Shown: positions 18,831 to 59,319, counted from the stretch's first letter. The stretch is 64,000 bases of DNA from Elusimicrobia bacterium CG1_02_37_114 (GCA_001871125.1 MNXB01000117.1:5654-69653); one strand, 5' to 3'. The notes: a model not told the origin generated them from the letters alone. Numbers and translations: made by a program.

Positions 18831-18831
18831 C

Positions 18832-19206: not shown

Positions 19207-19562
19207 AGATTTATTGCCTCCTTTGACCTTTTCTTCAATAGATTGGCGTCATTTTTCGGTATTGTTTGTGATTTTTTTTCTAAATAATGAATTAACCAAA
19301 ATATACCTTTATGAATTACAAAATAAATTCTATAATTTATTTTATCGAATTTACGCCTCAATTCCCATAATCCGCCGTGTATTCCGCCAAGAGGTTTAAT
19401 ATCAATTTGTCCTGAGCGCAAGCCTTCTGCTTGTAATATGGCTATGTCTTGGGCTAACCGGGACCAGACTGCTTTCCTTTGAGGATTTAATCTTAATTTC
19501 TCTAAGTGTTCTTTTACATATCCGTCAGTTTTATAGGGGTAAAAATAAATTGTTATATTCAT
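19203..19562 (-). CDS. higB: HigB-like toxin (RelE/ParE superfamily, Gp49-like)
   Basis: Gp49/HigB signature (IKPLGGIHGGLWELRRKFDKINYRIYFVIH). Toxin-first gene order. Confidence 0.8.
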   Translation of the reverse strand: MNITIYFYPYKTDGYVKEHLEKLRLNPQRKAVWSRLAQDIAILQAEGLRSGQIDIKPLGGIHGGLWELRRKFDKINYRIYFVIHKGIFWLIHYLEKKSQTIPKNDANLLKKRSKEAINL

Positions 19563-19654
19563 ATCATATAGCGTATCTGCTATATTTATAGCATATAAAA
19601 CATATTAAGTCAAGGGGAGTTTTTAAAAGGGTTTTTAATAAGCACCCGCAGAGG

Positions 19655-23020: not shown

Positions 23021-23023
23021 TTG

Positions 23024-42055: not shown

Positions 42056-43942
42056 TTATTTACCCATTGCCCTATCTAAACCTGCAACTGCTGTATTATA
42101 ATCGTAAAGTGATTGCTGATAATTTAATTCTGCCTGTGTTAATGCCAACTGGACATCCCTGACTTCAAGGGACGACATAAGTCCCAGCGCATATCTCTTT
42201 TCTGCTATTTCAAGGTTATCTTTTGCAGTATCAACATTTTCTTTCTGCGCCTCAATACTCTTTTTTGCCTGTTCATAGTCATAATATGTCTTTTCCAGTT
42301 CTAATTCTATCATTTGTCTGACCTGAACAGATGAGAATTCAGTCTGTTTAAGGTTTGCCTTTGCCTGTCTCACTTTGCTGTAAGTGGAAAAACCGTTAAA
42401 AATAGAAATCTGGAAAACGAGTGATGCAGACCACCTATCGTCCCAGGTGGACCAGTCAGACGACCATTCCGCATTCTGTAAATCACGACTCCCGCTGACC
42501 AGTAATGACGGGCCGTATTCTGCCTTTGACATTTTTACCATACCTGACATAATTTTCTTTTGAAATTCTAATTGTCTTATCTCAGGACGATTCTTTAACC
42601 CGCTGTCTAACAAATCTTTGTAATTATAGTCCAGCGGTATATATTCTAATTCGCCTTTAAATTCCATGGACTTATCTTCAGAATTTATGACATTTAATAA
42701 TAACTGCTTTGCTAATTTTAATCCATTTTCCACCCTGAGTAAGTTCACTTTAGCATTTGAAACAGCAACCCTTGCCCTTGAAACATCGTAACCGGATGCC
42801 TTGCCTTCATTGTAAAGTGCCTGGGTAACCTTAAAATGGTTTTCACTGACAGCAAAACCTTCATCTGCAATCTCCAGCGTTTTCTCCGTAAGTAAATACC
42901 TGTAAAAACTTTCTTGAACATTATATATTAGGTCATTTTTTGTCTTTCTGTATTCTTCCTGTGTTACTTCGTAACCAAAATATGCCTGCCTGTTAACCTG
43001 GTAAAGTCTGCCTGACATAAACAACGGCTGTTGAAGTGCTAATTTGCCTCCATAAATTTCTGTTGAAGTCATAGCGGGACTGATATCAAAAGGCAATACC
43101 ATACCCGGGGGTAATTCAAAAGTAGGTTTGCTCAATTTAGTATAGGTTCCGCTGAGTGAAAGTTTCGGTAAAAGAGTTGAAAACGCTTCTAATTTTTTTG
43201 CCCTGGCTGATTTAATCTTCTGCTCGGCAACTTTTATCTGCGGGTTATTTTCCAGTGCTGACTTTATACAATCTTCTAAAGTAAATATACTCTGTGCAAA
43301 TAATGTCTGTGACAGCAAAAACAATGCAAGAATACAGATTGCAACAGTCCTTTTTGCGACACCATATAGAAATATATCCAGTAACTTCTTTTTATTAATA
43401 TTTTTACCCGTGGGAACGGACATTTCCTTAAATCCTTCAAATAAACTGCCGTGCACAAGAGATGTAAATACTATTGCATAAAACATGGGGTTGTCTTCTC
43501 TGAAAATACTTTCTTTTATACCCCTTTTCATTATCAATACTATTTCTGAAATCATAACTTCCATTTTCTTATGAAGTTCAATCTGCACGTCTTTTTCCAG
43601 GATTAAAGGTCCCTCGCGGTGCATAACAGAAAAAATTGAATTGTTACTATTTAGAAAAGATATAACCTCTTCTAACAGAAAAACCATCTGCTTTTTAAAA
43701 TCCACCTTCTTTGCCCGCACCCCCCTTATCTTATCAGCAAGTTCATCTAATAATTTATACAGAATTTGTGCCAGAAGATCTTTCTTGTCTTTGAAATAAA
43801 GATAGAACGTGCCCTTGCCAATACCTGCCTTCCGCGCAATATCTTCAATCAGGCACTGGTGATAGTCTTTAGTGCTGAATAGTTCCTTGGCAGATTCAAG
43901 AATTTTTAAACGGTGATTCTCCATAATTTCTTTTTTCTTCAA
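42056..43942 (-). CDS. in-frame ORF combining a TetR-family regulator (residues 1-173) and a TolC-like outer membrane factor (from ATG 43423)
   Basis: TetR HTH (ESAKELFSTKDYHQCLIEDIARKAGIGKGTFYLYF), then signal-like stretch VAKRTVAICILALFLLSQTLFAQ, then two TolC repeats. No stop separates the two parts. Confidence 0.75.
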   Translation of the reverse strand: MKKKEIMENHRLKILESAKELFSTKDYHQCLIEDIARKAGIGKGTFYLYFKDKKDLLAQILYKLLDELADKIRGVRAKKVDFKKQMVFLLEEVISFLNSNNSIFSVMHREGPLILEKDVQIELHKKMEVMISEIVLIMKRGIKESIFREDNPMFYAIVFTSLVHGSLFEGFKEMSVPTGKNINKKKLLDIFLYGVAKRTVAICILALFLLSQTLFAQSIFTLEDCIKSALENNPQIKVAEQKIKSARAKKLEAFSTLLPKLSLSGTYTKLSKPTFELPPGMVLPFDISPAMTSTEIYGGKLALQQPLFMSGRLYQVNRQAYFGYEVTQEEYRKTKNDLIYNVQESFYRYLLTEKTLEIADEGFAVSENHFKVTQALYNEGKASGYDVSRARVAVSNAKVNLLRVENGLKLAKQLLLNVINSEDKSMEFKGELEYIPLDYNYKDLLDSGLKNRPEIRQLEFQKKIMSGMVKMSKAEYGPSLLVSGSRDLQNAEWSSDWSTWDDRWSASLVFQISIFNGFSTYSKVRQAKANLKQTEFSSVQVRQMIELELEKTYYDYEQAKKSIEAQKENVDTAKDNLEIAEKRYALGLMSSLEVRDVQLALTQAELNYQQSLYDYNTAVAGLDRAMGK

Positions 43943-45652: not shown

Positions 45653-46285
45653 TCAGGTCTGCGATAAGATAATCCGGAGCAGGGGGGACCAGAGGAGAAC
45701 TCCGATTATAAAAATTAACCAGGGGAAATCGGAAGCGGTGGGTTGCCTTGTAACTAAATTTGTATTCCATGTATTCCATACAAATGATACAAAAATAACA
45801 ACTGCACCTGAAATGAACAAAATCCAGTTGAATTTAACAGGACATTCTGTTTTAGTCTGGATATATAAAATAGAAATTGCCATAATTATCATTACTATTG
45901 ATACAAGGGCTGGCGCCAGGACAGGTGCAACCCATGTCACCGGAATCAGAAAAAGTATATCCCAGGTAAATAAATTCTGCGGCCAGTTGAGTAACGTCTT
46001 TAACCATACATAATAAAATATATCCCATACACCAAAAATAAATAGAAATGTAGCGAATTTTGTGATTCTGTTTTTTCCATTTGCCAGACTCACTGCAGTA
46101 ATCACAACAATAGTAGCAATTTCCCGGAGAATCTCTGTCAATAAAATTTTTGGCGGTATTAACTTCAAAGGAAAATAAAAACCTTCCGGGTAATATAATT
46201 CTCTAAGGTAAACCACTACAACAGCTTCAATAAAAGCCAGGGAAATGGCAAAAAATGTGATAGGCGATAATTTTTTTACAGGCAA
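45653..46285 (-). CDS. polytopic membrane protein, unknown function
   Basis: About 6 predicted TM helices, no recognisable motif. Terminal gene of the GNAT-Spt-SDR operon. Confidence 0.5.
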   Translation of the reverse strand: MPVKKLSPITFFAISLAFIEAVVVVYLRELYYPEGFYFPLKLIPPKILLTEILREIATIVVITAVSLANGKNRITKFATFLFIFGVWDIFYYVWLKTLLNWPQNLFTWDILFLIPVTWVAPVLAPALVSIVMIIMAISILYIQTKTECPVKFNWILFISGAVVIFVSFVWNTWNTNLVTRQPTASDFPWLIFIIGVLLWSPLLRIILSQT

Positions 46286-46290
46286 GAGAA

Positions 46291-46476
46291 TTATTTATAT
46301 TCTTCCGTATCAATTCCAGAATAGGCTTTTCTTATATTTTCTATTTTGAGATGATTTTTTTTCCCGGAAAGCGTTATTAACCCTGCCAGGATTAATAAAG
46401 CCGCGGAAGTTAGAAACACCAGTCCCAAAATAGAACCATTTTCTGTCTCTTCAATTTTTTCCTTCTGTTCTGTCAT
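46291..46476 (-). CDS. small single-TM protein
   Basis: 61 aa with one hydrophobic helix. Confidence 0.4.
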   Translation of the reverse strand: MTEQKEKIEETENGSILGLVFLTSAALLILAGLITLSGKKNHLKIENIRKAYSGIDTEEYK

Positions 46477-46519
46477 TTTCTGCTCCTAATTTAATATATG
46501 GGTGTCATAAATGCCACCA

Positions 46520-47632
46520 CTACAGCGTTTTTTCATAGACACGATATTTTTTATATATTTTCCCGCCCATCATTTCAGCCGCCCTGCACATCGCTATATT
46601 GTCTTCAAGGACCCAGGACATTTCTGCGGTTTTATACCCGAGTTTAATTCCCCTCTCTACTATTTCATAGAACATTATTCCTTCAATACCCCGGTTACGA
46701 TATTGTTTTTTTACACCCATAATCATTATACGAAGAGTTTTTATTCTATTCTTATACCATAAAAATTTTATTAATTCAACAGGACCCATTTTACCATTTA
46801 ATTTTTTTAATACTTCAAAATAATTCGGTACTCCTACTAACATACCGACCGGCTCTGTCCCTATATAGATAAAGAAAACCAATTCCGGGACAACTAATGG
46901 TTTAAGATTTGCACATTGATAATAAAACTCTTCCTCTGTCCAGGGCACAAACCCCCAGTTTTTTCCCCAGGCATTGTTATAAATTTCTCTTATTCGTTTT
47001 ATTTCATTGTCATAGTCCTTCAGATTTACCTGTCTTATGGTGAGTTTTGGTTCACGTCTTTTTATTTTTTCGTTCAGCCGATTAAGCCTTTCCATCGGAA
47101 CGGTTTTTTCTGTAATCTGATATGCATATAAATCTTTATCTTTTTTCAAACCATACTTTTCCGCCAACCCGTGATAGTACTCAGGATTGTAAGGCATCAT
47201 CAGAACAGGCGGTGAATCAAACCCTTCCAGTAAAAAACCGAGTTCATCATTTGTGGAAGGTGCAGTCGGGCCCATCATTTTTTTCATACCTTTTTCCTTC
47301 AGCCAGTTTTCAACAGCAGATAACAATAATTCAGCAACGGAATAATCGTTCATGGCTTCAAAAAATGCAAAGAACCCTGTCTGTTCATTGTGAAATTCAA
47401 GATAGTTTCTGTCAATTACACCTGCTATGCGTCCGACAATTTCGCCGTTATTTTCCGCAAGGAACAATCTCTGTTCCGAGTGCTTCCAGAAAGGGTTTTT
47501 GTTTTTATTTAACAGTTTTTTTATGTCTGAAATAAGCTGCGGTACCCAGTAGGGGTCATTTTTATAAACTTTCCACTGAAATTTTATAAATTTCATCAAA
47601 TCTTTTTCGGTTTCAACAGTTCTTATCTGCAT
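46520..47632 (-). CDS. double-GNAT-fold N-acyltransferase (candidate bacterial ceramide-synthase-like / aminolipid N-acyltransferase)
   Basis: C-terminal GNAT motif A (GVKKQYRNRGIEGIMFYEI). N-terminal degenerate GNAT. Context with Spt-like and SDR genes. Confidence 0.6.
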   Translation of the reverse strand: MQIRTVETEKDLMKFIKFQWKVYKNDPYWVPQLISDIKKLLNKNKNPFWKHSEQRLFLAENNGEIVGRIAGVIDRNYLEFHNEQTGFFAFFEAMNDYSVAELLLSAVENWLKEKGMKKMMGPTAPSTNDELGFLLEGFDSPPVLMMPYNPEYYHGLAEKYGLKKDKDLYAYQITEKTVPMERLNRLNEKIKRREPKLTIRQVNLKDYDNEIKRIREIYNNAWGKNWGFVPWTEEEFYYQCANLKPLVVPELVFFIYIGTEPVGMLVGVPNYFEVLKKLNGKMGPVELIKFLWYKNRIKTLRIMIMGVKKQYRNRGIEGIMFYEIVERGIKLGYKTAEMSWVLEDNIAMCRAAEMMGGKIYKKYRVYEKTL

Positions 47633-47638
47633 ATGCGG

Positions 47639-48946
47639 TCATTTTCCGAAACGCCAGAAAAGGTCCTTGAACCATTTTTGCAATTCTATGCGGAACCTCT
47701 GCGTCCCTATCCTTAACTGCCTGAATATTTTCCTCTGTTTCCTGAATTTATCAGGTCTATATGCTCCCGGGATAACACCGAGTTGTTTACCGACTTTTTC
47801 AAATGCGTTAAGAACACGGTCAAGATGTTTATCTGTATGTATAGCCATATAACTCGTCCTTATGAGTGCCTCTCCCTCGGGTACCGCAGGACTCACAACA
47901 GGACTGGCAAACACCCCTTCATCAAATAACATCTGACACATCTGGAATGCTTTCATATCATCACCTACGGTAATCGGTATAATCGGGGTTTCGCTATCGC
48001 GCGTATTGAAACCTAACGATTTGAAGCCACTAAGCATCTTTCTTGTGTTTTTCCACAATCTCTGTCTCAATTCGGGTTCCTGCTCAATTATATCTAATGA
48101 AACATCAATGGCGGCAACCTGTGCAGGCGGCAGACTCGCAGTAAATATTAGTGCTCTGGCAAAATGTTTAATGTAGTGTATGACTTCTTCGTGCCCAGCA
48201 ATAAATCCGCCGATGGATGCAAGCGATTTACTCGCTGTAACCATTATTATATCCACTTCTGCGGAAAGCCCGAAATGCTCGGCAGTGCCTCGGCCGTTTC
48301 TACCCAGAACTCCGAGTGAATGTGCATCGTCCACCATTACCCTTGCATTGTATATCTTTGCAAGTTTAACAATTTCGGGCAAATTTGCAATATCGCCTTC
48401 CATGCTGAATACACCGTCAACAACAATAAGTTTGGGGACATCGCGATTCTTTGACAGGACTCTTTCCAAATCTTCCATATTATTGTGCCTGTATCTCAGC
48501 ATCTCGCCAAACGAAAGCATGCAGCCGTCAATAATTGATGCATGGTCAAGTTTATCGGTTATAACAAGTTCATTTTTGCCGACAAGAGTTGATATCGCGC
48601 CTAAATTGGAGTGATGTCCCGTAGTGAACAATAACGCTGATTCTTTACCGATGAACCGGGCAAATTTTCGTTCAACTTTTTCATGCAGGTCAAGTGAACC
48701 GCTCAAAAACCTTGAGCCGGTGCAACTGGTACCGTATTTCTTTATTGCCTCAATTGCAGCACGTTTTACTTTAGGATGCAGCGAAAGTCCTAAATAATTA
48801 TTAGAACAACATACGATTTTCTTTTCACCGTCAATTATTACTTCGGGACCCTGTGCTGTCTCTATTCTCCGGAAATACGGGTAATATCCCGCAGCCATTA
48901 CTTCCCTTGCAGTTGTAAATTTCTGACATTTAGAAAACAGGTCCAT
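47639..48946 (-). CDS. PLP-dependent alpha-oxoamine synthase (serine palmitoyltransferase / KBL / BioF family)
   Basis: Class-II aminotransferase fold with PLP-lysine region (TASKSLASIGG), GHHSN, DDAHSLG. Confidence 0.8.
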   Translation of the reverse strand: MDLFSKCQKFTTAREVMAAGYYPYFRRIETAQGPEVIIDGEKKIVCCSNNYLGLSLHPKVKRAAIEAIKKYGTSCTGSRFLSGSLDLHEKVERKFARFIGKESALLFTTGHHSNLGAISTLVGKNELVITDKLDHASIIDGCMLSFGEMLRYRHNNMEDLERVLSKNRDVPKLIVVDGVFSMEGDIANLPEIVKLAKIYNARVMVDDAHSLGVLGRNGRGTAEHFGLSAEVDIIMVTASKSLASIGGFIAGHEEVIHYIKHFARALIFTASLPPAQVAAIDVSLDIIEQEPELRQRLWKNTRKMLSGFKSLGFNTRDSETPIIPITVGDDMKAFQMCQMLFDEGVFASPVVSPAVPEGEALIRTSYMAIHTDKHLDRVLNAFEKVGKQLGVIPGAYRPDKFRKQRKIFRQLRIGTQRFRIELQKWFKDLFWRFGK

Positions 48947-48959
48947 GGAATGCTCCTTT

Positions 48960-49943
48960 TTACAGCCAGTGATTTTCTTTATACCAATTATAAGTAATTT
49001 TTGCCCCTATTTCAAGTTGCGTGAATTTAAGCTCAAAATCCTTTTCAAAAACAGACGTATCTGCTGTCCAGTATTTCTGACAGAACTCTTTAACTTTATC
49101 CCTGTTCAGTTTTGCCGGCATATTTTTAAAACTCGCGAAAAATTCTGATATCACCGCAAAAATATTCACAAGATATAGAGGGAAAGTAATGATTTTTACA
49201 TTCCTGCCTGAAACACAGCCGAGTATTCTGCCGATTTCCTCCCAGGTGTATATCCTGTTTTCAGCCAGAAAATATATGTCATTCCCTGTCTCTTTTGCTT
49301 CTGCAATAAGACAGCATATTTCTGCCAGGTCTTTTATAAACAAAAGCTGGATTTTACAGTTTCTGTCACCGCTCATAATCGTAAAAAAACCCTGTGCAGC
49401 AACTTTAAAAAATGGAAACAAATCTTTATCTCTCGGACCATAAACTGCGGCAGGACGCAAAACTGTCACCGGTAATTTATCTCTGTATTTAAGCACCTCT
49501 GCCTCACCGAGTAGTTTACTTTTACCATAGTGTGAAACAGGAATGCAACTTTCATTCAATCCTTTACACATATCTGCCTGTGAGGGTCCCATTACAGATT
49601 GAGTCGATATATAAACAAACCTTTTTATATCTGGATTAAACTTATAAACCGCTTCAATAAGATTTTTTGTACCTATATGGTTGACTTTATAATAAGTTTC
49701 TGTTTTTGATACCCGGACAACTCCTGCTGAATGAAAAATTATGTCAATATCTTTCACTGCCTGTTCTAAAGCTTCGGGTTCTGTTATATCTCCGTAACAA
49801 AATTCCAAAGGCAGATTTTTTACCCATTTTAAATCACTCGTTTTCCTGACAAGACATCTTACGGAATAATTTTTACTTACAAGTCTCTCTGCGATGTGAC
49901 TCCCGACAAAACCGTTTGCTCCTGTAATTAATATTTTTTGCAT
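48960..49943 (-). CDS. NAD(P)-dependent epimerase/dehydratase-family SDR (candidate 3-keto reductase)
   Basis: Rossmann motif ITGANGFVGSHI and YGKSK catalytic motif. Confidence 0.8.
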   Translation of the reverse strand: MQKILITGANGFVGSHIAERLVSKNYSVRCLVRKTSDLKWVKNLPLEFCYGDITEPEALEQAVKDIDIIFHSAGVVRVSKTETYYKVNHIGTKNLIEAVYKFNPDIKRFVYISTQSVMGPSQADMCKGLNESCIPVSHYGKSKLLGEAEVLKYRDKLPVTVLRPAAVYGPRDKDLFPFFKVAAQGFFTIMSGDRNCKIQLLFIKDLAEICCLIAEAKETGNDIYFLAENRIYTWEEIGRILGCVSGRNVKIITFPLYLVNIFAVISEFFASFKNMPAKLNRDKVKEFCQKYWTADTSVFEKDFELKFTQLEIGAKITYNWYKENHWL

Positions 49944-49971: not shown

Positions 49972-50268
49972 CTATAAATCTAATTTTAATTCGAGTTGTG
50001 GATTCTGTAACTCTATCTCTTTTAATATACTTTGCACCAGAGAAATGGCATCAGATAATGCCTTTTGTGAATCAGAAATTGACATCAATACACCTGATTC
50101 GTAGGTCAAATCATTTCTTTTTCTTCGCATAGATTCAAATTTCCTTACAAGATTTGAATATTTATCACCCAAAATTGCTTCAGTCATTTCTACTACTGTC
50201 CTATGTTGACCACCATCATCAGGGATATAACCCGACAATAACAATAAAGCTCTACCTGCCTTTAACAT
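49972..50268 (-). CDS. HEPN-like domain protein, probably N-terminally truncated
   Basis: Begins at the ALKALL-equivalent helix (MLKAGRALLLL) with an RKRNDLTYE region. The upstream frame is open but has no start codon. Confidence 0.4.
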   Translation of the reverse strand: MLKAGRALLLLSGYIPDDGGQHRTVVEMTEAILGDKYSNLVRKFESMRRKRNDLTYESGVLMSISDSQKALSDAISLVQSILKEIELQNPQLELKLDL

Positions 50269-50462
50269 TGCTGTATAAGCTAATAAAATAGTGACAGCTA
50301 TTTTTTAATAATTGCAGATTTATTCGTGTTTTTTTTCTTTCACTACTAGTAAATTACCGAATTATTGAGCAACTACAAACGTCCCCGTTACATGTTTTCA
50401 ATAATTCAATCATTTAAACACCGTCCCGTAACACTTTTAATCCAACAATACCTATTATGCAT

Positions 50463-51581
50463 TTAATTTATTGTTTTTAAAAAATATATTGTTTCTGTAA
50501 CCTTATCGTTGGAAACCTTATAGTGCCGTTTTGCATGATCTCGCTCTGTCCTAAATCGTCTGTATATTTGCTTATAAACCTTGGCTTTACCTCTTTTACA
50601 TAGTGTTTCACGAATAAGTTCATCTGACATAATTCCTTCGTTGTTATAACTTAATAGTATGTATTTTGCGTCTGCATTTTTTATTAAATCTGCAAATTTC
50701 TCTCCACATTTTTCTTTTAGATTATAATCTGATTTTTGTTTATCGTAAGGACGAAGTCCTGTTTTACCATAAATATTAGGATTATCCCATCTAGCAATTG
50801 TTTCAAGAATATGAAAATTTGGTGCATATTGACGACTATTATATGGGGGGTCTATATATAATATGTCGCATTTAATATTTCTTACTAATTTATTTGCATC
50901 TTCCAAATGGATCTCATGTTTTGAATTGCTTTCTATTAATTTGGGTGGTAAAAGTGTTAAATGCTTTAATGCCATGGACCTCCATATTTTCAAAAAAGCT
51001 CCATATGTACCCGATATGTTAGCAACAAAATCTGCAGCATCAATTAAAGATGCTAAGAGAATAAAATATTCCTCTTTTGTTATCCAATCATTATTTTTCC
51101 ATATCTGAATGAGATTTCTAATGGCATCCACTTTTTTCGCATTTTCATCTTTAAAATATTGTCTTTGATATTTACTATTGGAAGTACCTCCCGGAGCATA
51201 GTTTAAGTATACAAACCCTTTTTCTTCTGGTAGATTATTTAGATAATTTAGTACAGCTTTCAAATTTTCCTTATTTGTATCCTCTTTAAAAAACAAGGAT
51301 GACTGAACTTTATTTTTTGCTTTTAAAATATCTTTTTCATGCTGTAATACTTTTGTGAAGGAAGGATTTATGTTGTTCTTTATGTATGCATATTGAAAAA
51401 CATAGGAATAATACATAATGTCACAAGTAATCAATTTATATCCCTTTTTCTTATAAAATTGTGCAACATTAGTTGTGCCACTAAAAATATCACAAAAAGT
51501 TCCTTTCGTTGGCAATTTTTCTTGTGTAATTACCTTATCAATGAACGGCAATAATCTAAACTTATTTCCTATATACTTCAT
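50463..51581 (-). CDS. N6-adenine DNA methyltransferase, D12 (Dam-like) class
   Basis: N-terminal KYIGNKFRLL and catalytic DPPY (ILYIDPPYN). Confidence 0.8.
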   Translation of the reverse strand: MKYIGNKFRLLPFIDKVITQEKLPTKGTFCDIFSGTTNVAQFYKKKGYKLITCDIMYYSYVFQYAYIKNNINPSFTKVLQHEKDILKAKNKVQSSLFFKEDTNKENLKAVLNYLNNLPEEKGFVYLNYAPGGTSNSKYQRQYFKDENAKKVDAIRNLIQIWKNNDWITKEEYFILLASLIDAADFVANISGTYGAFLKIWRSMALKHLTLLPPKLIESNSKHEIHLEDANKLVRNIKCDILYIDPPYNSRQYAPNFHILETIARWDNPNIYGKTGLRPYDKQKSDYNLKEKCGEKFADLIKNADAKYILLSYNNEGIMSDELIRETLCKRGKAKVYKQIYRRFRTERDHAKRHYKVSNDKVTETIYFLKTIN

Positions 51582-51591
51582 TTGTATTGTT

Positions 51592-52254
51592 TTATCTTGC
51601 CCTATGAAAATTCAAAAATATTGATTCAAAATATTTTTTCAAATTTGGGTCAAAATTATCTGAAAAATTTAAAATAAACTTGGTTTTTGTTTCATCAATA
51701 TATGATATAATTGCTAAACGGTCTGAATCAGAAGGCTCTAAGTCGTTTATCGTTTCCTTAATAAGCTCGCTTTCTTTTGACAAAACTCTTTCAGCAAACT
51801 TACCAAAAATTTTCGTGTCTATTCCTGCAATAAAAGCAAATATTGGCTTGAATTTACCGTTCTTAAATGGTTTCTTACCTTCTATTTCTACATCACTTAT
51901 AAACTTTAAAACATCCAACATACATCTCTTTATTTTCTTCCTATCTGATAAAATCTTCTTATAATCATCCTTCGCCTCTCCTATGAAAAATAAAACTTTC
52001 GGCGTGTCACTTTTTTGCAAAACTAAGTCAACGCGTTCAACTTCTTTTCCAACATAAAACTTGTGGGTTTTATTGTTATATTCTAGAAATAATTCCTGCC
52101 ATGCGCCTCCTGGTGGACTTATATATGCCCTGAACCATTTGTCATAAATAGTTGTTAATGAAAAATCCACAGACATCAAAGAAGCTTCTTCACCATATTT
52201 CTTAGCATTAAATTTTATTAACTCTTTAATTGTCATATGGTTTCTGCACCTCAT
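51592..52254 (-). CDS. PD-(D/E)XK nuclease-fold protein, candidate restriction endonuclease (small subunit)
   Basis: D...EAK motif (RVDLVLQKSDTPKVLFFIGEAKDD). Confidence 0.5.
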   Translation of the reverse strand: MRCRNHMTIKELIKFNAKKYGEEASLMSVDFSLTTIYDKWFRAYISPPGGAWQELFLEYNNKTHKFYVGKEVERVDLVLQKSDTPKVLFFIGEAKDDYKKILSDRKKIKRCMLDVLKFISDVEIEGKKPFKNGKFKPIFAFIAGIDTKIFGKFAERVLSKESELIKETINDLEPSDSDRLAIISYIDETKTKFILNFSDNFDPNLKKYFESIFLNFHRAR

Positions 52255-53716
52255 TATTAATTATAATCAAATCAGAATTGTATTTAAAAGATCGTGTTAA
52301 TTTAGTATTTTTTGTGACAAATTTATCATATTTAAATCCCTCTGGAGGGTCAACAAAAATATATAGCAATAGGTTCATTGTTTTTTCCCCATCTAAATCC
52401 AAGGCAAACAATTCTCTAAAAGCATAGAGTTCTCCAGATTCCGGGTCTCCGGACTCTATTTTATTTTCTCCTTTCCAGATTCTTCCCGGAAATATTAGTG
52501 TTGGTAACGAAGTATTTAACGATGTGAGCGTAATATTATTATGGTTGTAATTTGATTCTATAATTTGCTTCAACTTTGAGGTATCCAAACATATGCCAAC
52601 TTTTGATATACCTTTTTTATAAGAAAGTAACTTTATCTTATGATTTATGAGATCTTTAATTAATGGTTTATCTTCAATATTGCCGGGAACCCAATTAACA
52701 AAATTTTTAAAATTCCAATCTAAAATATTACAACTAGATTCAACTTTTGCTGATTTATCATATATTCGCTTAATAATAAAATCTTCTAAAAACGAATCTT
52801 TTAAAAGTAAGGAACGTTGTTTTTCGGTTAAAACAGAGAAGTCATTATCAAGCCTTACATGGGATCTGCCGTGTTTTATAACTGAATTATTTAAATAAAC
52901 CCTCATGTGGTTCAAGATAATTCTTTCAAATTTTATTTTTTCTTCTTTATGTGTACCAAAAGCACTATTAAGAAGTATTAAAGAAAGACAATTTCCTATT
53001 AAACTTCTTCCTTCAGGTTGAGAATGACTAAATCCAAGTCTACTATCAATCTTCGGATTATCAAAATATATTACAAAAGAAGGACACCTATATCTAATTG
53101 TATAAATAATATGATTTATTACCTGTAACGATGTCGGTTCTCTTGGTTGACCTTCGTCTACTTCCTGCGATCTATCAGTCCCCGAATAAAAGGTTTGGTA
53201 AAGAACAGGTGTATTAGAAATGACTGCACCTAATTTTCTGCCTTCACGTTGCCATTGTGAATTCCCAACATTTGCAGTACCTGTTGTTTCTATAACAACA
53301 ACGGGGTTAAAATTCTTATCAAATCTACAAATAACAATATCAGGGATATCTGCAAATTGGATAATTTTCCCAACTGTTTCTGGTATATCCCATGCTGAGT
53401 ATTGTCCGCATATTTTTATGTTAATGTATTTATTATCTGAGGAGACAAAACAATAAATCGGTTGACTTATTGGTTCATATACTACGCCAACCAGTTTTAG
53501 AAAATTACTGAATTGAACTATTAAATCAAAAACATATACACTTTCTAATGTGTTATCTGAAAAAGAAACCAGATTGATATGCTCTGCGTTCTTACAGATC
53601 TCTTCAAGTTCTTCTGAAGTAAGAACTCTTATTTTTCTTTGTTTGCCATAAAGATCATCTTGGGGTTCTTTAATGAACAAAGGTCTTTGTTTAGAAATAT
53701 TATATTCCTCTGGCAT
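52226..53716 (-). CDS. hypothetical 496-aa protein, candidate restriction endonuclease large subunit
   Basis: Nuclease-like IPDIVICRFD...VVIETTG region. Sits between the two MTases and overlaps both neighbours. Confidence 0.4.
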   Translation of the reverse strand: MPEEYNISKQRPLFIKEPQDDLYGKQRKIRVLTSEELEEICKNAEHINLVSFSDNTLESVYVFDLIVQFSNFLKLVGVVYEPISQPIYCFVSSDNKYINIKICGQYSAWDIPETVGKIIQFADIPDIVICRFDKNFNPVVVIETTGTANVGNSQWQREGRKLGAVISNTPVLYQTFYSGTDRSQEVDEGQPREPTSLQVINHIIYTIRYRCPSFVIYFDNPKIDSRLGFSHSQPEGRSLIGNCLSLILLNSAFGTHKEEKIKFERIILNHMRVYLNNSVIKHGRSHVRLDNDFSVLTEKQRSLLLKDSFLEDFIIKRIYDKSAKVESSCNILDWNFKNFVNWVPGNIEDKPLIKDLINHKIKLLSYKKGISKVGICLDTSKLKQIIESNYNHNNITLTSLNTSLPTLIFPGRIWKGENKIESGDPESGELYAFRELFALDLDGEKTMNLLLYIFVDPPEGFKYDKFVTKNTKLTRSFKYNSDLIIINNEVQKPYDN

Positions 53717-53717
53717 A

Positions 53718-54686
53718 TTATCCTTCCTTTCTAAAAATCAGTATGTTTTGATGAATCATTGAAGGAATAAAAGTGGAAGGATACCCATAAACATGGAGTG
53801 ATTTGCTTACATCATACCAAATAAGATTTGCTTTTAGTACTAAGTTAGGATTTTTTATTATATTTGATAATTCCGCACCTAACAAATGATATTCATTTCC
53901 TCTATACATATCACCAATAAAAATTGCTAAATATTTTTTATTTTTGAGAACCCTTTGGCATTCTTCAAATATTTTTTTCATCTCTTCAAGCCATTCTTCT
54001 TTTGTTTGAATATGGGAACCATTAAATTGTGATAAATTAGATTGCTTTATTCGTTTACTTCTCGTCTGTTCCAACTTATCCATATGCCAGTATGGAATAT
54101 CCGTTAGAATGAAATCAAAGAAATTATCTTGAAATTTATTTATTTCTGTTTTACAATCTCCCTCGATTATTTCCTGTTCCTGTATTTTTTCTAACTTACA
54201 TACTTCTTTATAGATTTTTATCCATTTAGGATTAATATCAATCCCAATTGCTTTTCTGTTACATAGTGATGCTCCGAGTAAAGTTCCACCAACCCCCATT
54301 AGAGGATCAAAGACAATTGCATTTTCTTTAGTAAAAGTTTTTATTAGGTCAGCGCAGAGTTCGGGAGGTTTTTGTCCACCATGTTGCTTACGAAGACCAT
54401 GTTGCAGGTTAAGAGAATAAACTTTGTTAATCACTGATTTTGTTGCAAATTTCCATTCTCTTCCCGTTAGATCATTCAATTTATTATTTTTAGTATATAA
54501 TCCGCGTGCTCCCAAATCAATAGTTTTAAATTTTCTGTCTTTATTAATATTTATATCTTTTTTAGTTGAGTTTAAAAATAAATTAGGGAATAAATATTCG
54601 TTAGAACTTTCTCTGATTAAATATTTTTTATCAGCGTTTTGTAGTCTATTTGATTTTAAATGATTTTTTAATGTACTTTTTCTCAT
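53718..54686 (-). CDS. DNA methyltransferase, beta class (N4-C/N6-A, PF01555-like)
   Basis: AdoMet motif FDPLMGVGGT. Catalytic motif unusually DIPYW (FILTDIPYWHM). Confidence 0.8.
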   Translation of the reverse strand: MRKSTLKNHLKSNRLQNADKKYLIRESSNEYLFPNLFLNSTKKDININKDRKFKTIDLGARGLYTKNNKLNDLTGREWKFATKSVINKVYSLNLQHGLRKQHGGQKPPELCADLIKTFTKENAIVFDPLMGVGGTLLGASLCNRKAIGIDINPKWIKIYKEVCKLEKIQEQEIIEGDCKTEINKFQDNFFDFILTDIPYWHMDKLEQTRSKRIKQSNLSQFNGSHIQTKEEWLEEMKKIFEECQRVLKNKKYLAIFIGDMYRGNEYHLLGAELSNIIKNPNLVLKANLIWYDVSKSLHVYGYPSTFIPSMIHQNILIFRKEG

Positions 54687-54900
54687 TTTGTTTTATATTA
54701 CTATTTTTTCGTTGAAAATAGTGACATCTTTCTGCTAAATCGGATATTTTTTTAGCTTCCTTTAGATTTAAAATAGATTCTTTCAATAAAGATTCAACCT
54801 GAACGAAACCGACCTTCTTTTCTCTTAATTTACCATCATTTATTAGTTTTTTAATTAAATTAGATAATCCTGCGGATAAATTACTCAGGTTTTCCTGCAT
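54646..54900 (-). CDS. small basic/helical protein, partner of the HTH-nucleotidyltransferase
   Basis: 84 aa, overlaps both flanking genes. No canonical HEPN Rx4-6H motif. Confidence 0.35.
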   Translation of the reverse strand: MQENLSNLSAGLSNLIKKLINDGKLREKKVGFVQVESLLKESILNLKEAKKISDLAERCHYFQRKNSNIKQNEKKYIKKSFKIK

Positions 54901-55453
54901 TCAGTTGTCCTTTCAATAATAAGATTTTATCTTTAATTATCATATCTAAAAATCCACCTGATTTCTTTCTTTCGTTTTCAAATTCTTTTTCGGTGTAAGT
55001 AGTAAAATTAATTTCTCTATTCAATTCTTTTTCTAAATTATTGATTTTCTCTAAGAATTTATCCTGATTAATATTTCCAATTACTATTAAGTCAATATCA
55101 GAAGTTCTCTTCTCTTTGTTTTTTGTATAGGAACCGTAGATAAAAGCTAATACAATATCTTTGAACTGATTAAGCATTTCTTTCAATTGCCCCCCCACTC
55201 CTTCTGTTTTGAATATTATTATCTTTATTTCCTTATAAAGAGGATATTTTTTGTTTAAGGAATAAAATTTTAAATCACCTCTTCTATGCGAAACATAGAT
55301 TCCTTCTTTCTCAAATTTTTTTAATTCTCTTGAAAGATTGCCTGCATCCATGCCTATAAGGTTCGCAAGTTCCCTTACATAATAACTTTCATCCGGGTGC
55401 GTAAATGAATAAGTTAAAAGCTTTTTTCTAAGCTTATTTTCTAATAAAATCAT
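54881..55453 (-). CDS. wHTH + minimal nucleotidyltransferase (MNT-like) protein
   Basis: wHTH (VRELANLIGMDAGNLSRELKKFEKEG) and NTase motif FIYGSYTKNKEKRTSDIDLIV. Confidence 0.7.
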   Translation of the reverse strand: MILLENKLRKKLLTYSFTHPDESYYVRELANLIGMDAGNLSRELKKFEKEGIYVSHRRGDLKFYSLNKKYPLYKEIKIIIFKTEGVGGQLKEMLNQFKDIVLAFIYGSYTKNKEKRTSDIDLIVIGNINQDKFLEKINNLEKELNREINFTTYTEKEFENERKKSGGFLDMIIKDKILLLKGQLNAGKPE

Positions 55454-55541: not shown

Positions 55542-56330
55542 TTATTTTCTTCTGTAAGCATCAAGGAAAGAATCGCAATAAATGTTTTTGCCAAGTAAAA
55601 GTTCGGCGGTTATCATAGCATCTACCAGGTCCTTATCAAGCGGGTTAACTATGGCAGCATCAAGACCGCTTGCAAGTGCCATTACAAGGAAAGTCCGGTC
55701 TATAAGTGAACGGTAGTTTGTTCCCTGTGATACGTTTGATAACCCGAGTATGGTTTTTGGCGGCGGGTCACACAGAAGTGGACACTGTTTCAGAGCCTCA
55801 AGAACTGCGGCTGAATGCTCCATAGCAACATTGACGGGCAGTATTACCGGGTCTATGTATAAACCAGAAGTATCTATCCCGTGTTCCATTACTTTTGCTA
55901 CAATATTTGCCGCTATTTCAACCCTGCCTTCCGGAGTTATCGGTATACCTGTTTTGTTTATCGTAAGAGCAATTATTTTTGTATTATATTTCTTTGCTAA
56001 CGGCAGAAATTTGTCCATTTTTTCTTCTTCACCGTTTATTGAATTCAGGAATGCCCCTTCTCCTGAAAGTTCAAGTCCTTTGTCCATAACGTCTAATTTT
56101 GTTGTGTCTATCGCAAGCGGTACGTTTGTGACTTCACGGATTGTTTCTATCATCCACTGCATATCCTTCAGCGGTTCAGATGAGGCGGGTCCCACATTTA
56201 CGTCCAGGACACCCGCGCTTGCCTCAAGTTGTTTTTTTGCAATGTCCTGCAGGATTGATTTATTTTTTGTCTGGATTGCTTCACGGACATTTTTAAACAT
56301 TCCATTAATCTTTTCTCCAATGATAAGCAT
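55542..56330 (-). CDS. acsE: methyltetrahydrofolate:corrinoid Fe-S protein methyltransferase (pterin-binding, AcsE/MtrH-like)
   Basis: Pterin-binding TIM barrel (IIGEKINGMFKNV...GVLDVNVG, GLSNVSQG). Confidence 0.8.
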   Translation of the reverse strand: MLIIGEKINGMFKNVREAIQTKNKSILQDIAKKQLEASAGVLDVNVGPASSEPLKDMQWMIETIREVTNVPLAIDTTKLDVMDKGLELSGEGAFLNSINGEEEKMDKFLPLAKKYNTKIIALTINKTGIPITPEGRVEIAANIVAKVMEHGIDTSGLYIDPVILPVNVAMEHSAAVLEALKQCPLLCDPPPKTILGLSNVSQGTNYRSLIDRTFLVMALASGLDAAIVNPLDKDLVDAMITAELLLGKNIYCDSFLDAYRRK

Positions 56331-56343
56331 GCTGCCTCCTTTT

Positions 56344-56428
56344 CGTCCTGATGAATCAGGACGCTACATTTTATGATAAATCAAGACGCTACATTTTATG
56401 ATAAATCAAGACGCTACATTTTAAACTC
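56344..56428. repeat. hairpin CGTCCTGAT-GAA-TCAGGACG followed by a 3x tandem 25-bp repeat (CARGACGCTACATTTTATGATAAAT) in the acsE leader
   Basis: Read directly. On the minus strand the hairpin is followed by AAAAGGAGG-N6-ATG(acsE). Confidence 0.5.
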
Positions 56429-56433
56429 TAATG

Positions 56434-57396
56434 TCAAGGCCTGACCCCCGTCATTAATTGTTTTATTGTCTGTTTTATAATCTTTATAGATTCGGGATGT
56501 ACTAAAACCAGAATATCCGAGCCTGCCTGGAGGTATCCCGCGGCACAGGTTACTTCCCATCCGACAGCACGGCTATGAAGTTCTCCCCATGTAGGTTGTT
56601 CGTCTTTTGAAGCTTTTGCTTCTTTTATTTTCCATGTTTCTTCAGCAATCATATTTATTATCGGTGTTGCTACAACTTTATCACCCGTCAAACCCGCCAG
56701 CCTGCATCTTTCCATTATTGAATAACAATATTCAAATCCATAGCCCAGCCCGCCTGTAGTATGATGCATAACTATCCGTTCAACCGGCAATCCCATATCA
56801 GAAATCAATATGTTGAGTTGTTTTGCTAAATTTATGTCCAGTGGAGTTTCTGCAATGACACTGTGGTCATTTGCAAGTGCCGCTGCAGTAATTGTTTTAT
56901 AATTATCTTTAGTAGCCATGCCTAAAAGAATTTTCTCTCCTTTGGTCATCTCAGCCACTTTTGGAAGTATCTCCTGGTCTTTTTCAGGATGATTGCATCC
57001 TATAACAATCAGCGGGAGGCTGACAGTTTTCAAAACTTTACTGACTAATTCCCCGGCATATTCCACTGAATTATTTTTACCGTCAGGATGACAGGAGTCA
57101 AGTTTCAGACAGAGCAAATCAGCGCCCCATTCTTCACACTTTTTTGCCCATCTAAGGGTATCGTTGATAAAGTTCTTAAATTCCTCAATAATAAAAGGCC
57201 AGTGTTCGGGAGGCGTATCACACACTTCTGCAGCAACTAGCGGAGGATTAGGCATCTGCCCTTCAAAATGCAGGAATGGTAATGTAGTTTCACCACCGAT
57301 TTTTATAACCTTGCTTCTGCTACCACCCTCAGAACTTACCGACCCTATTGATAATTCAGCTATTTTACCCGTCCATTTCTCAATTACTTTTTCCAT
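56434..57396 (-). CDS. acsD: corrinoid iron-sulfur protein small subunit (CdhD/AcsD)
   Basis: AcsD TIM-barrel family (DLLCLKLDSCHPDG, IVIGCNHPEKD). Confidence 0.8.
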   Translation of the reverse strand: MEKVIEKWTGKIAELSIGSVSSEGGSRSKVIKIGGETTLPFLHFEGQMPNPPLVAAEVCDTPPEHWPFIIEEFKNFINDTLRWAKKCEEWGADLLCLKLDSCHPDGKNNSVEYAGELVSKVLKTVSLPLIVIGCNHPEKDQEILPKVAEMTKGEKILLGMATKDNYKTITAAALANDHSVIAETPLDINLAKQLNILISDMGLPVERIVMHHTTGGLGYGFEYCYSIMERCRLAGLTGDKVVATPIINMIAEETWKIKEAKASKDEQPTWGELHSRAVGWEVTCAAGYLQAGSDILVLVHPESIKIIKQTIKQLMTGVRP

Positions 57397-57410
57397 AAAG
57401 TCCAGTCCTT

Positions 57411-59228
57411 TTAAATCCCCAATTTTCTCTTTACCGTGGGAAATAGTTCAATGTCCGTATGCGGTAAAAACAATGTTGACGTATATTCATTCATAAATTT
57501 CGGATTCGTGGACAAGTCTATATAAGTCATTTTACCTACAATCTCTTTTGCCTTCTCTCTTGCGGATTTTGAAAGGAGACATATTTTTGCACCTGCTACT
57601 GAAGAATTACCAATGAAACTGAATTTCTCATCGGGTAAGTCAGGCAACAGTCCAATCAGAATCGCCTTTCCGATATCAAGGGCAGTGCCGAAACCACCTG
57701 AAATGTATATCCTGTCAATATCTTCAAATTTTAGTTTCATTTCCTGTAATAAAACCTGCATGCCCAGAAAGACAGCTCCTTTTGAACGTAATAGTGTTGC
57801 AATATCAGATTCTGTTATTACTATGTGGCTATCTTTATCAGAAACAATTACAAATTCATATTCGTCATCTTCATTTTTTCTTAAACGGTTACTCTTAACT
57901 GATTCTTTCCTGAATTTACCTGAACGGTCAATTATGGAATTTCTCAGCAGTTCAGCAGGTATATCTATCAGCCCGGAACCGCATATACCTTTTGGCTTTT
58001 TGTTATTGATAGTAGAAACAGTAACTTCACCGTTGTCAATCTTAATACTTTGTATTGCACCGTCTATTGCACTTATTCCGCACTTTATTCCCACTCCTTC
58101 AAAGGCAGGCCCCGCAGAGCAGGAACACCCTACAAGCCAGTCACTGTTGCCGAGAACAATTTCTCCGTTTGTGCCCAGGTCAACAAGTAAAGATGCTTTT
58201 TCTACCCTATCCATACCGCTTGCCAGGACACCGGCTGTTATGTCACCGCCTAAATAAGATGCTACCCCGGGCAGGCAGGAAATTGTCCCTCTCGGGTTAA
58301 TTTTTATATTGAGTTCTTCTGCATTTATCACTGGCGGAAAATTAACCACAGGTATGTAGGGTTCTTTTCTTATATATTCAGGATTTATACCCAAGAACAA
58401 ATGTATCATTGTAGTATTACCTGCAGACTGAACAGCAAGAATATCGTTTTGTGAAATACCGCTTTTTTCAACTAATGCGGCAATCAGGTCATTAATGGTA
58501 TTACATATCATCTGGCTAAGTTTCTTCAATCCTTTTTTCTCTGTGGAATACATTATCCGGGTTATAACATCCTGGCCCAGGGAGATTTGCTGATTATAGG
58601 TCGCTTCTGCACAATGGACTTTACCGCTGTCTAAATTCACCAGGTATGCAACGACCGTGGTAGTCCCTATATCAAGTGCAATCCCGTAAATATCCTTTGA
58701 CCTGTCACCCGGTTCAAATTGTACGAATTCGTATCCACCGTCAGATTCCACTAAGCTTGCGGTAAAGTCCCATTCAACCTTTCTCAAAAAATGAGGCAGC
58801 GCTTTTAACAACGACAGGCCGATTTTCAGGTTTGATATGGATAATTTTTCTTCAAGTTTACTCTTTAGACGTTCGTAATCAGGTATGTTATTTTCAAGTG
58901 AAGGTTGGACAAGCTTTAAGTGAACTTTTTTTGCGAGTGGCTGGTATGCAAAAACACTTTCCTGCGTTTGCTCCGCAGTATCTATGAGTGCGTGTATTTC
59001 TTCTATTCTTGAACTATACGGTATTTCAATTACTAAGTCATCCGTAACATTTGTCTGACAACTCAATACATAACCGTTTTTGATAATAACTTTACATTTT
59101 CCACAGGTTCCATTGCCACCACAATCTGAATTAATATATATACCAGCGTCGGTTATGGCAGACAATAGGTCAGTATTATCTTTAACTTTAATTTCTATGT
59201 CATCAGGAAGTATTTTTACGGTATGCAT
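57411..59228 (-). CDS. acsV: corrinoid activation/regeneration protein (RACo/AcsV): 2Fe-2S ferredoxin + ASKHA ATPase
   Basis: N-terminal CGGNGTCGKC...C plant-type ferredoxin and a DUF4445 ASKHA core. Confidence 0.8.
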   Translation of the reverse strand: MHTVKILPDDIEIKVKDNTDLLSAITDAGIYINSDCGGNGTCGKCKVIIKNGYVLSCQTNVTDDLVIEIPYSSRIEEIHALIDTAEQTQESVFAYQPLAKKVHLKLVQPSLENNIPDYERLKSKLEEKLSISNLKIGLSLLKALPHFLRKVEWDFTASLVESDGGYEFVQFEPGDRSKDIYGIALDIGTTTVVAYLVNLDSGKVHCAEATYNQQISLGQDVITRIMYSTEKKGLKKLSQMICNTINDLIAALVEKSGISQNDILAVQSAGNTTMIHLFLGINPEYIRKEPYIPVVNFPPVINAEELNIKINPRGTISCLPGVASYLGGDITAGVLASGMDRVEKASLLVDLGTNGEIVLGNSDWLVGCSCSAGPAFEGVGIKCGISAIDGAIQSIKIDNGEVTVSTINNKKPKGICGSGLIDIPAELLRNSIIDRSGKFRKESVKSNRLRKNEDDEYEFVIVSDKDSHIVITESDIATLLRSKGAVFLGMQVLLQEMKLKFEDIDRIYISGGFGTALDIGKAILIGLLPDLPDEKFSFIGNSSVAGAKICLLSKSAREKAKEIVGKMTYIDLSTNPKFMNEYTSTLFLPHTDIELFPTVKRKLGI

Positions 59229-59319
59229 AAAATAACGAGGCTAAAGCCTCTACTCCAGGACAAGGTCTACTGCCCCACGATGATTCCGTTATATATTCTA
59301 CGAAATCATTACTCGGGGG

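Follow-up and report, generated by a model that had tools for sequence, protein, structure and literature searches.

A stretch of DNA from Elusimicrobia bacterium CG1_02_37_114 (64 kb, hereafter the window) carries, at positions 45653-49943, an operon of five genes, three of which very probably encode the enzymes of a bacterial ceramide-backbone pathway, as judged from sequence homology, conserved active-site residues, synteny and fused genes. The pathway itself is already known; what is new here is the host, together with two minor additions specific to the lineage. Surveys predict sphingolipid synthesis in about 40 (38-40) bacterial phyla (PMC11334938), so that its appearance in Elusimicrobia comes as only a small surprise, even if Elusimicrobiota are not named in the main text or the accessible supplements of that study. 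The earlier note on this DNA had described the lineage as one without known lipids of this kind, which holds for the searchable literature, where no lipid data were found for any member of the Elusimicrobiota.

In agreement with the earlier note, the locus comprises five co-directional ORFs, all on the minus strand and arranged in the order SDR-AOS-GNAT-61-aa-210-aa, with intergenic gaps of 13, 6, 43 and 5 bp; public gene calls on near-identical contigs delineate the same five genes. The SDR, a CerR-type reductase candidate (48960-49943; 327 aa), matches the Pfam families Epimerase (9.6e-41) and 3Beta_HSD. The alpha-oxoamine synthase (AOS), which resembles serine palmitoyltransferase (Spt), spans 47639-48946 (435 aa) and matches Aminotran_1_2; its catalytic domain covers residues 1-392, with Lys240 as the PLP-binding lysine, and is followed by a strongly basic C-terminal extension (residues 393-435; 47639-47770) that ends in the Trp/Phe-rich motif QKWFKDLFWRFGK. 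The putative bCerS-type N-acyltransferase (46520-47632; 370 aa) is a tandem GNAT of the YghO family and matches Acetyltransf_1. The enzyme classes named in the earlier note are borne out for all three proteins. Two membrane proteins complete the set, namely a small single-pass protein with the C-terminal motif IRKAYSGI (46291-46476; 61 aa) and a multi-pass protein with a TTG start that belongs to a large uncharacterised family (45653-46285; 210 aa). In public annotation, the operon enzymes appear as a biotin enzyme and a hypothetical protein.

Sequence comparisons support the assignment of the AOS to Spt of the Bacteroidota/delta-proteobacterial subgroup rather than to BioF or KBL. The best-scoring NCBIfam model was NF047600 (Spt, CFB type; 530.6 bits), with the next-best, non-Spt model, gly_Cac_T_rel, more than 100 bits lower (425.7 bits). 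Similarly, the top PDB match was the Spt of Sphingobacterium multivorum (SmSPT; 418 bits), compared with 310 bits for Thermus BioF/KBL, 282 for E. coli KBL and 212 for BioF; overall, characterised Spt is the nearest relative of the AOS, ahead of BioF, KBL, ALAS, CqsA and SulA, with no non-Spt structure exceeding 310 bits. Phylogenetic placement, proposed in the earlier note as a check, put the window sequence on the Spt side of a neighbour-joining tree, grouped with S. multivorum Spt (79% bootstrap), and in 87% of 300 bootstraps the tree kept BioF, Kbl and Thermus KBL apart from every Spt-like sequence. The PLP and catalytic set of the AOS fold is present, including the Schiff-base Lys, the PLP-stacking His, the Asp/His pair and the carboxylate-binding Arg: in the alignment, Lys240, His135, Asp206, His209, Thr237, Ser181 and Arg363 correspond to SmSPT Lys244, His138, Asp210, His213, Thr241, Ser185 and Arg367. 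Among the 15 active-site residues of SmSPT, as placed by PMC10196870, 14 are identical, the exception being Met271, where the AOS has Ile, a difference shared with two other Spt enzymes.

The AOS nevertheless scores below the equivalog cut-off of NF047600 (640 bits), a model built for Bacteroidota (CFB) Spt and applied here to a host from another phylum, and a score below this cut-off would be compatible with a substrate amino acid other than serine (alanine, glycine) or with another chain length. Use of alanine or glycine instead of serine, which would lead to 1-deoxy- or 1-desoxymethyl-ceramide-like N-acyl amino-alcohol lipids, is the alternative that fares best, although we consider it unlikely. 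S. multivorum Spt accepts alanine and glycine at low efficiency (PMC10196870), and 1-deoxyceramides dominate anoxic Black Sea water, where they have been attributed to anaerobic bacteria with Spt-like genes (PMC11334938); the source organism of the window is itself an anaerobe, with Wood-Ljungdahl genes. However, all residues that contact the serine hydroxyl network of SmSPT (Asn52, Gly80, Ser81, Ser243 and Thr241) are identical in the AOS, and no residue change suggests another substrate.

The other two enzymes were tied to the assayed Caulobacter and Bacteroides proteins through the E. coli orthologues named in PMC9386255, where yghO (ECD_02850) is the counterpart of CC_1154 (bCerS) and ECD_02852 that of CC_1164 (CerR). 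The window GNAT aligns with E. coli YghO end to end (residues 1-370 versus 8-380; 34% identity, E 2e-77), shows the GNAT-superfamily acyl-CoA N-acyltransferase fold and likely carries its acyl-CoA loop, 312-RNRGIEG-318, in the C-terminal GNAT half. In E. coli, yghO lies among genes for spt, an acyl carrier protein, an epimerase and a fatty acyl-AMP ligase, as well as lptF/lptG paralogues. A bCerS-type N-acyltransferase is thus the supported prediction for this protein, and a CerR-type reductase the supported prediction for the SDR. The latter possesses the Rossmann motif GANGFVG (residues 8-14) and the catalytic Tyr/Lys motif YGKSK (139-143), and aligns over nearly its full length (residues 2-303, E 2e-37) with the epimerase of the E. 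coli spt-acpR-aasR cluster, at a low identity of 26%. NCBIfam holds no CerR-specific curated model, and the top curated model for the SDR, HpnA, scores far below its cut-off (126.7 versus 367.65 bits). Caulobacter CerR has been reported to be periplasmic (PMC11087976), a location not indicated for the window SDR, which has no signal peptide and starts straight at the Rossmann strand (MQKILITGANG). The E. coli homologue has the same kind of start, suggesting that periplasmic location may not be general to the CerR family. The combination of these three enzyme types, which the earlier note had linked to ceramide synthesis, is therefore upheld by the grouping of the AOS with Spt, of the GNAT with YghO and of the SDR with the CerR orthologue.

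Gene neighbourhoods point in the same direction. Searches with the GNAT recovered 80 genomes from over 15 phyla. Among them, the AOS gene is located directly upstream of the GNAT gene, on the same strand, at 46 of the 78 loci with a called GNAT ORF, an SDR homologue occurs no more than 5 kb from the GNAT in 34 genomes, and all three occur together in 32. Side-by-side AOS and GNAT genes, in many cases accompanied by the SDR, are seen across more than 15 phyla, and AOS-GNAT fusion proteins were also identified (P0408, P0410 and P0495). In Elusimicrobiota, the triad is carried on the chromosome and has been conserved vertically; loci with the co-localised triad also turned up in Thermodesulfobacteriota, Nitrospirota, Zixibacteria, Ignavibacteria and other groups. 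A PAP2_3/PAP2_C protein ranks fourth among the neighbours by frequency (13 of 85 loci) and belongs to a family that includes sphingomyelin and inositol-phosphorylceramide synthases. What the earlier note had presented as a five-gene set is conserved as a module of the three enzymes, and neither membrane protein belongs to the widely conserved module.

The same neighbourhoods bear on the possibility, which we regard as very improbable, that the same enzyme types make some other N-acylated amino-ketone or amino-alcohol (a signal molecule, for instance, or a membrane lipid of another kind) rather than a sphingolipid. CqsA-type AOS enzymes do produce signal molecules, and on a plasmid of Rubrobacter radiotolerans, to our knowledge not an organism known for sphingolipids, AOS-GNAT-SDR adjoins an LTA-synthase-family gene. 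Nonetheless, CqsA is the weakest AOS-family structure match of the window AOS (157 bits), and both the vertical conservation of the chromosomal triad in Elusimicrobiota and its frequent linkage to PAP2_3-type lipid head-group transferases argue against such a product.

An even smaller chance is given to the sulfonolipid (capnine) pathway, in which the AOS would act as a cysteate acyltransferase like SulA or CapB, with reduction and N-acylation as the later steps. SulA and CapB are AOS enzymes of the same fold, the later steps of that pathway also use a reductase and an N-acyltransferase, and the window AOS matches their structures with 248-263 bits; yet these scores are ~155 bits below that of Spt, and no cysteate synthase gene was found among the window ORFs scanned. 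Moreover, Lys281, which comes from the opposite protomer and is diagnostic of cysteate acyltransferases, being Ala in Spt (PMC9304779), corresponds to Ala270 in the window AOS, and on this residue the aminolipid and sulfonolipid alternatives raised in the earlier note find no support. Least probable of all, and close to refuted, is a housekeeping BioF (biotin) or KBL (threonine catabolism) with unrelated neighbours: although public records label the AOS 8-amino-7-oxononanoate synthase and the NCBIfam bioF and Kbl models still give it ~404 bits (404.8 and 403.6), neither score reaches the cut-off of its model (426.45 and 460), the Spt model scores ~125 bits higher, the tree sets it apart from both families, the diagnostic residue is Ala rather than Thr (BioF) or Asn (Kbl), the AOS is fused or adjacent to a YghO-type GNAT in many phyla, and no bioA/B/C/D or tdh gene, the neighbours that the earlier note had named as a refuting sign, is present among the ORFs of at least 150 aa scanned in the 64 kb window.

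In the ceramide pathway that we favour, Spt would join L-serine and a long-chain acyl thioester in a condensation that yields 3-ketosphinganine, the acyl donor most likely being acyl-CoA, because the operon includes no gene for a dedicated acyl carrier protein (AcpR) or acyl-ACP synthetase (AasR). The YghO-family tandem GNAT (bCerS) would then attach a second acyl chain to the amine, and the CerR-type extended SDR would reduce the 3-keto group to give dihydroceramide. The acylation-then-reduction order is adopted from work on Caulobacter, and the lack of a signal peptide in the SDR would place all three steps on the cytoplasmic side of the membrane. The 64 kb window holds no gene for adding a head group. 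We infer the substrates, the product and the order of the steps, as well as the roles proposed below for the Spt tail and the membrane proteins.

The Spt tail consists of 43 residues, 14 of them K/R and 3 D/E, and recurs among Elusimicrobiota relatives. Of the 120 closest homologues, 96 have tails of at least 30 aa, which average a net charge of +11 and share the ending SKKW[IV]KNLFWRF, whereas tail-less homologues of ~392-408 aa include proteins from Nitrospirota and some from Elusimicrobiota/Endomicrobium. Of the basic amphipathic tail described in the earlier note, the basic character stands; amphipathicity is not demonstrated, since 11% of the shuffled controls reach the observed helical hydrophobic moment. 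Bacterial Spt forms soluble homodimers rather than a heterodimer in the membrane, and the basic Trp-rich tail probably tethers this otherwise soluble enzyme to the membrane.

The two membrane proteins of the earlier note were recognised as such, with one hydrophobic span (residues 12-39) in the 61-aa protein and ~6 spans in the 210-aa protein. The 61-aa gene, preceded by an AGGAG ribosome-binding site 8 nt upstream of its ATG, encodes a protein with no match in Pfam or NCBIfam. Alignable relatives are located directly downstream of the GNAT at three loci (L009, L016 and L017), and a model built from these independently matches two more, L099 (E 2e-4) and L098 (E 1.4e-3); it is an accessory gene that recurs only within Elusimicrobiota. 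The 210-aa gene probably shares a transcript with the rest of the operon, yet its tie to the pathway is weak, and it was found beside the operon in only one close relative. The small single-pass protein may be a membrane partner of Spt in Elusimicrobiota. One could go further and imagine a membrane-tethered Spt in which the conserved tail and a co-encoded single-pass protein of 60-80 aa ([IL]RKAYxG[IL]) act as one unit that anchors or regulates the enzyme and the 210-aa protein is a further lipid-handling component, a scheme that we consider doubtful; if true, the tail and the small protein would play a part comparable to that of the small SPT subunits of eukaryotes (ssSPT/Tsc3). We know of no small partner described for a bacterial Spt. 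In eukaryotes, ssSPTa/b and Tsc3 are single-pass membrane proteins of ~60-80 residues associated with serine palmitoyltransferase. No sequence similarity between them and the 61-aa protein was detected, so that the likeness is by analogy only, a single-pass protein of comparable size being tied to Spt, here by the operon.

Among known systems, the window operon combines in one locus the same three families as Spt/bCerS/CerR of Caulobacter crescentus (CC_1162/CC_1154/CC_1164) and spt/yghO/epi of E. coli B, with full-length identities to the E. coli proteins of 37% (AOS), 34% (GNAT) and 26% (SDR). Unlike those clusters, it contains no AcpR, AasR or LptF2/G2 paralogue, its Spt belongs to the other, Bacteroidota/delta-type subgroup and bears the basic tail, and its genes follow the order SDR-AOS-GNAT in a single operon. 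The closer counterpart of the enzyme itself is S. multivorum Spt (PDB 3A2B/8GUH), ~50% identical over 386 residues and likewise stand-alone, with no ACP partner gene, although its C terminus lacks the basic extension. Bacteroidota reportedly have the three pathway genes scattered instead of gathered in an operon (PMC11334938). The clusters predicted in 38-40 phyla from metagenomes of the Black Sea, for which PMC11334938 describes neither an Spt tail nor a small membrane protein, contain the same co-localised triad, which that study used to recognise sphingolipid producers from their genomes; the relatives recovered here in Thermodesulfobacteriota and the other groups named above are of this type.

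The five co-directional genes proposed in the earlier note were confirmed, because the coordinates of the open reading frames (ORFs), the short intergenic gaps (13, 6, 43 and 5 bp), the Pfam domains and the calling of the same five genes on near-identical public contigs all agree. Lying on the minus strand, they encode an SDR (48960-49943, 327 aa; Pfam Epimerase/3Beta_HSD), an alpha-oxoamine synthase (AOS; 47639-48946, 435 aa; Aminotran_1_2), a tandem-GNAT protein (46520-47632, 370 aa; Acetyltransf_1) and two membrane proteins of 61 aa (46291-46476) and 210 aa (45653-46285), neither with a Pfam match. The AOS and GNAT proteins were 100% identical to those in the record of the MAG 'Elusimicrobia bacterium CG1_02_37_114'. 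Promoter and terminator scans returned no more sites than in shuffled sequence, and the transcript ends were not defined by them.

Judged from sequence, the best-supported reading of the SDR, AOS and GNAT genes is a three-step route to a ceramide backbone. The AOS, acting as a serine palmitoyltransferase (Spt), would condense serine and fatty acyl-CoA to 3-ketosphinganine, which the YghO-type tandem GNAT would N-acylate, and the SDR would then reduce the 3-keto group to yield dihydroceramide, the order of acylation before reduction being that of the Caulobacter literature. Which amino acid and chain lengths this scheme would use, which head group is finally added and what the AOS tail and small membrane protein do are inferences; the main rival is that the same chemistry would proceed with alanine or glycine, giving deoxy-type lipids.

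The Spt-like identity of the AOS was upheld by profile scores, structure matches, active-site residues and its placement relative to BioF and Kbl, the biotin and threonine-catabolism relatives. The top curated NCBIfam model was NF047600, a Bacteroidota-type serine palmitoyltransferase (530.6 bits), followed by a BioF/Kbl-related subfamily (425.7), bioF (404.8) and Kbl (403.6), with the AOS falling below the own cut-off of every one of these models, NF047600 included. The top solved structure was Sphingobacterium multivorum Spt (SmSPT; 418 bits), followed by Thermus BioF/KBL (310), Sphingomonas Spt (287) and E. coli KBL (282), with weaker matches to cysteate acyltransferases (248-263), E. coli BioF (212) and CqsA (157). 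Fourteen of the fifteen SmSPT active-site residues (PMC10196870) are identical in the window AOS, the exception being Met271, replaced by Ile as it is in Sphingomonas and E. coli Spt. The sole active-site difference between cysteate acyltransferases and Spt is reported to be Lys281, which is Ala in Spt (PMC9304779); the equivalent column holds Ala270 in the window AOS, Asn in Kbl and Thr in BioF. In a neighbour-joining tree of 24 sequences (300 bootstraps), comprising E. coli BioF, Kbl and Spt from annotated genomes, three PDB sequences and GNAT-linked AOS proteins from 17 loci, BioF, Kbl and Thermus KBL stood apart from all Spt-like sequences (87% bootstrap), and the window AOS grouped with S. 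multivorum Spt (79%).

A BioF or KBL identity was rejected, as the profile scores, the tree and the diagnostic residue speak against it and no bio/tdh genes adjoin the AOS: among the window's non-overlapping ORFs of at least 150 aa (overlapping shadow ORFs were skipped), there was no biotin-synthesis or threonine-dehydrogenase gene. Thus the combination that the earlier note had named as counter-evidence, an AOS clustering with BioF/KBL near such genes, was found neither in the tree nor in the ORF scan. The sulfonolipid alternative raised there fails at the SulA Lys281 position, occupied by Ala270. The aminolipid alternative (ornithine or glycine lipid) was dropped, as the pathways for those lipids involve, to our knowledge, no AOS.

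The GNAT protein fell into no curated family, and its full length matched annotated YghO (tblastn, plasmid records). In E. coli, yghO adjoins genes for spt, an acyl carrier protein, an NAD-dependent epimerase and a fatty acyl-AMP ligase, as well as lptF/lptG paralogues. In the legend to Fig. 9 of PMC9386255, Caulobacter CC_1154 corresponds to yghO (ECD_02850) and CC_1164 to ECD_02852; these Caulobacter genes are bCerS and CerR, respectively, both needed for dihydroceramide synthesis. The YghO-bCerS connection was drawn from this paper, the literature on 'YghO' by name being mostly unrelated, and through it the window GNAT is assigned to the bCerS family. The deposited name of the AOS, '8-amino-7-oxononanoate synthase', is corrected from a biotin enzyme to an Spt-like AOS, and that of the GNAT, 'hypothetical protein', to a bCerS-family GNAT.

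A GNAT-family scan with one genome per species recovered at least 80 loci (individual loci are given L numbers below) from Zixibacteria, Thermodesulfobacteriota, Nitrospirota, Latescibacterota, Ignavibacteria, Gemmatimonadota, Calditrichia, Aminicenantes, Spirochaetes, Bacteroidota, Planctomycetota and others, and an exhaustive HMMER search with the GNAT yielded 1,544 representative clusters at E <= 1e-30. Among these at least 80 loci, the AOS gene lies immediately upstream of GNAT on the same strand in at least 46, in at least 34 an SDR homologue is encoded no more than 5 kb from GNAT, and all three genes are present in at least 32. In three proteins of about 780 aa among the HMMER clusters (P0408, P0410 and P0495), an Spt-like AOS domain is fused to a YghO-type GNAT. 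Synteny and fusions thus place AOS and GNAT in one pathway, independently of annotation. The family member P0443 has a PilZ domain at its N-terminus, a hint of c-di-GMP control in some lineages. A plasmid of the actinobacterium Rubrobacter radiotolerans (L091; NZ_CP007515, record 14230-19822) bears a cluster of AOS, YghO-like GNAT (38% identity to the window GNAT), NAD(P) oxidoreductase and LTA-synthase-family genes.

Clustering of neighbours at 85 loci returned GNAT (82), AOS (54) and SDR (39), followed by a PAP2_3/PAP2_C membrane protein (13), from a family that we take to include sphingomyelin and inositol-phosphorylceramide synthases. The latter gene, a candidate head-group transferase, lies within 2.5 kb downstream of GNAT, mostly on the opposite strand, in L001, L002, L011-L013, L015, L018-L020, L023, L027, L045 and L083, mainly Thermodesulfobacteriota/deltaproteobacterial and Nitrospirota loci, with L023 from Latescibacterota and L045 and L083 from unclassified records. 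No PAP2_3/PAP2_C domain was detected among the scanned window ORFs.

The 43-residue C-terminal extension of the Spt, described earlier as basic and amphipathic, is indeed basic (14 K/R versus 3 D/E), but its hydrophobic moment was not above that of shuffled controls. Of the 120 closest homologues, 96 carry a tail that is 30 aa or longer (mean net charge +11), the named ones with a tail being all Elusimicrobiota or Endomicrobiia, and its ending, SKKW[IV]KNLFWRF, is conserved; Nitrospirota AOS homologues of 392 aa have no tail. Both membrane proteins adjoin the lipid genes as previously proposed. Relatives of the smaller, sharing a C-terminal [IL]RKAYxG[IL] motif, lie directly downstream of GNAT in five other Elusimicrobiota loci, the matches in L098 and L099 being independent of the model that found the relatives. 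Five of the six loci bearing the 61-aa protein have an Spt tail of at least 30 aa (in L016 it measured < 30 aa), a pattern confounded by phylogeny. The 210-aa protein is one of a very large family for which neither a known domain nor an informative structural match emerged, and whose members are not linked to spt in Ignavibacterium, Bacteroidetes and Actinomycetota genomes. It occurs near the operon in L099 only, one close relative; the gene is probably co-transcribed with the operon, but its place in the pathway is not established. In other Elusimicrobiota, a gene for a Lys/Ala-rich protein of 130-160 aa closely follows GNAT, namely in L009 (9185-9610), L016 (6171-6653), L017 (6149-6586) and L031 (4431-4820), in the first three between GNAT and the small membrane protein gene; the L031 contig stops short of any such gene, and the window contains no Lys/Ala-rich gene of this size.

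Adjoining the lipid operon, 55542-60678 carries Wood-Ljungdahl/acetyl-CoA synthase-related genes (pterin-binding protein, CdhD-family proteins and RACo reductive activator), and in relatives acetate kinase and Wood-Ljungdahl-type genes directly precede the SDR gene. The intervening low-GC island (49972-55453; GC 0.295 versus 0.383 in the operon) encodes a D12 adenine methyltransferase, an N6/N4 methyltransferase, a nucleotidyltransferase-type gene and two large ORFs without Pfam match, probably restriction components. In the relatives L098 and L099 the pterin-binding gene lies immediately upstream of the SDR gene, which makes the island look inserted in this strain. A 628-aa ORF (42056-43942, minus strand) combines a TetR-type HTH (residues 14-59) and a TolC-like OEP domain separated by a signal-peptide-like stretch, and represents an unusual in-frame fusion or else a pair of genes lacking an intervening stop codon. 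An IS-type integrase (rve) gene and an AbiEii/AbiEi toxin-antitoxin pair were found at 19799-20665 and 22112-23857. An LPS core/O-antigen locus (12386-17992) encodes two GT9 heptosyltransferases, an O-antigen ligase, a GT4 glycosyltransferase and a polysaccharide deacetylase; apparently, then, the organism has genes for LPS as well as for a ceramide pathway, and its envelope may contain LPS together with sphingolipids.

Elusimicrobiota include termite-gut and groundwater bacteria. From their gene content, Elusimicrobiota/Endomicrobiia would join the lineages whose gene set for a ceramide backbone is complete, and for environmental lipidomics they become a further candidate origin of the (deoxy)ceramides of anoxic habitats. 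The number of phyla with Spt-like genes was raised from 9 to about 40, and the triad has already been published as a genomic signature of sphingolipid producers (PMC11334938). Elusimicrobiota do not occur in the text or the searched supplements of that study, and the searchable literature contained no report of sphingolipids in the phylum and no paper linking it to Spt or ceramide synthesis, in keeping with the earlier remark that this lineage is not known for such lipids. Since the pathway has been described before, as has its broad predicted distribution, the operon adds incrementally to what is known, unless the tail and small membrane protein prove to work together with Spt.

Compared with known systems, the operon lacks genes for an acyl carrier protein and an acyl-ACP synthetase, which agrees with the Bacteroidota/delta-proteobacterial subgroup of Spt and not with that of the alpha/beta/gamma-proteobacteria, a distinction drawn in PMC9386255. 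The SDR, whose Rossmann motif spans residues 8-14 and which has YGKSK at 139-143, aligns over residues 2-303 with the epimerase of the E. coli cluster (26% identity, E 2e-37) and is assigned to the CerR type; however, it has no signal peptide, whereas Caulobacter CerR is reported to be periplasmic (PMC11087976).
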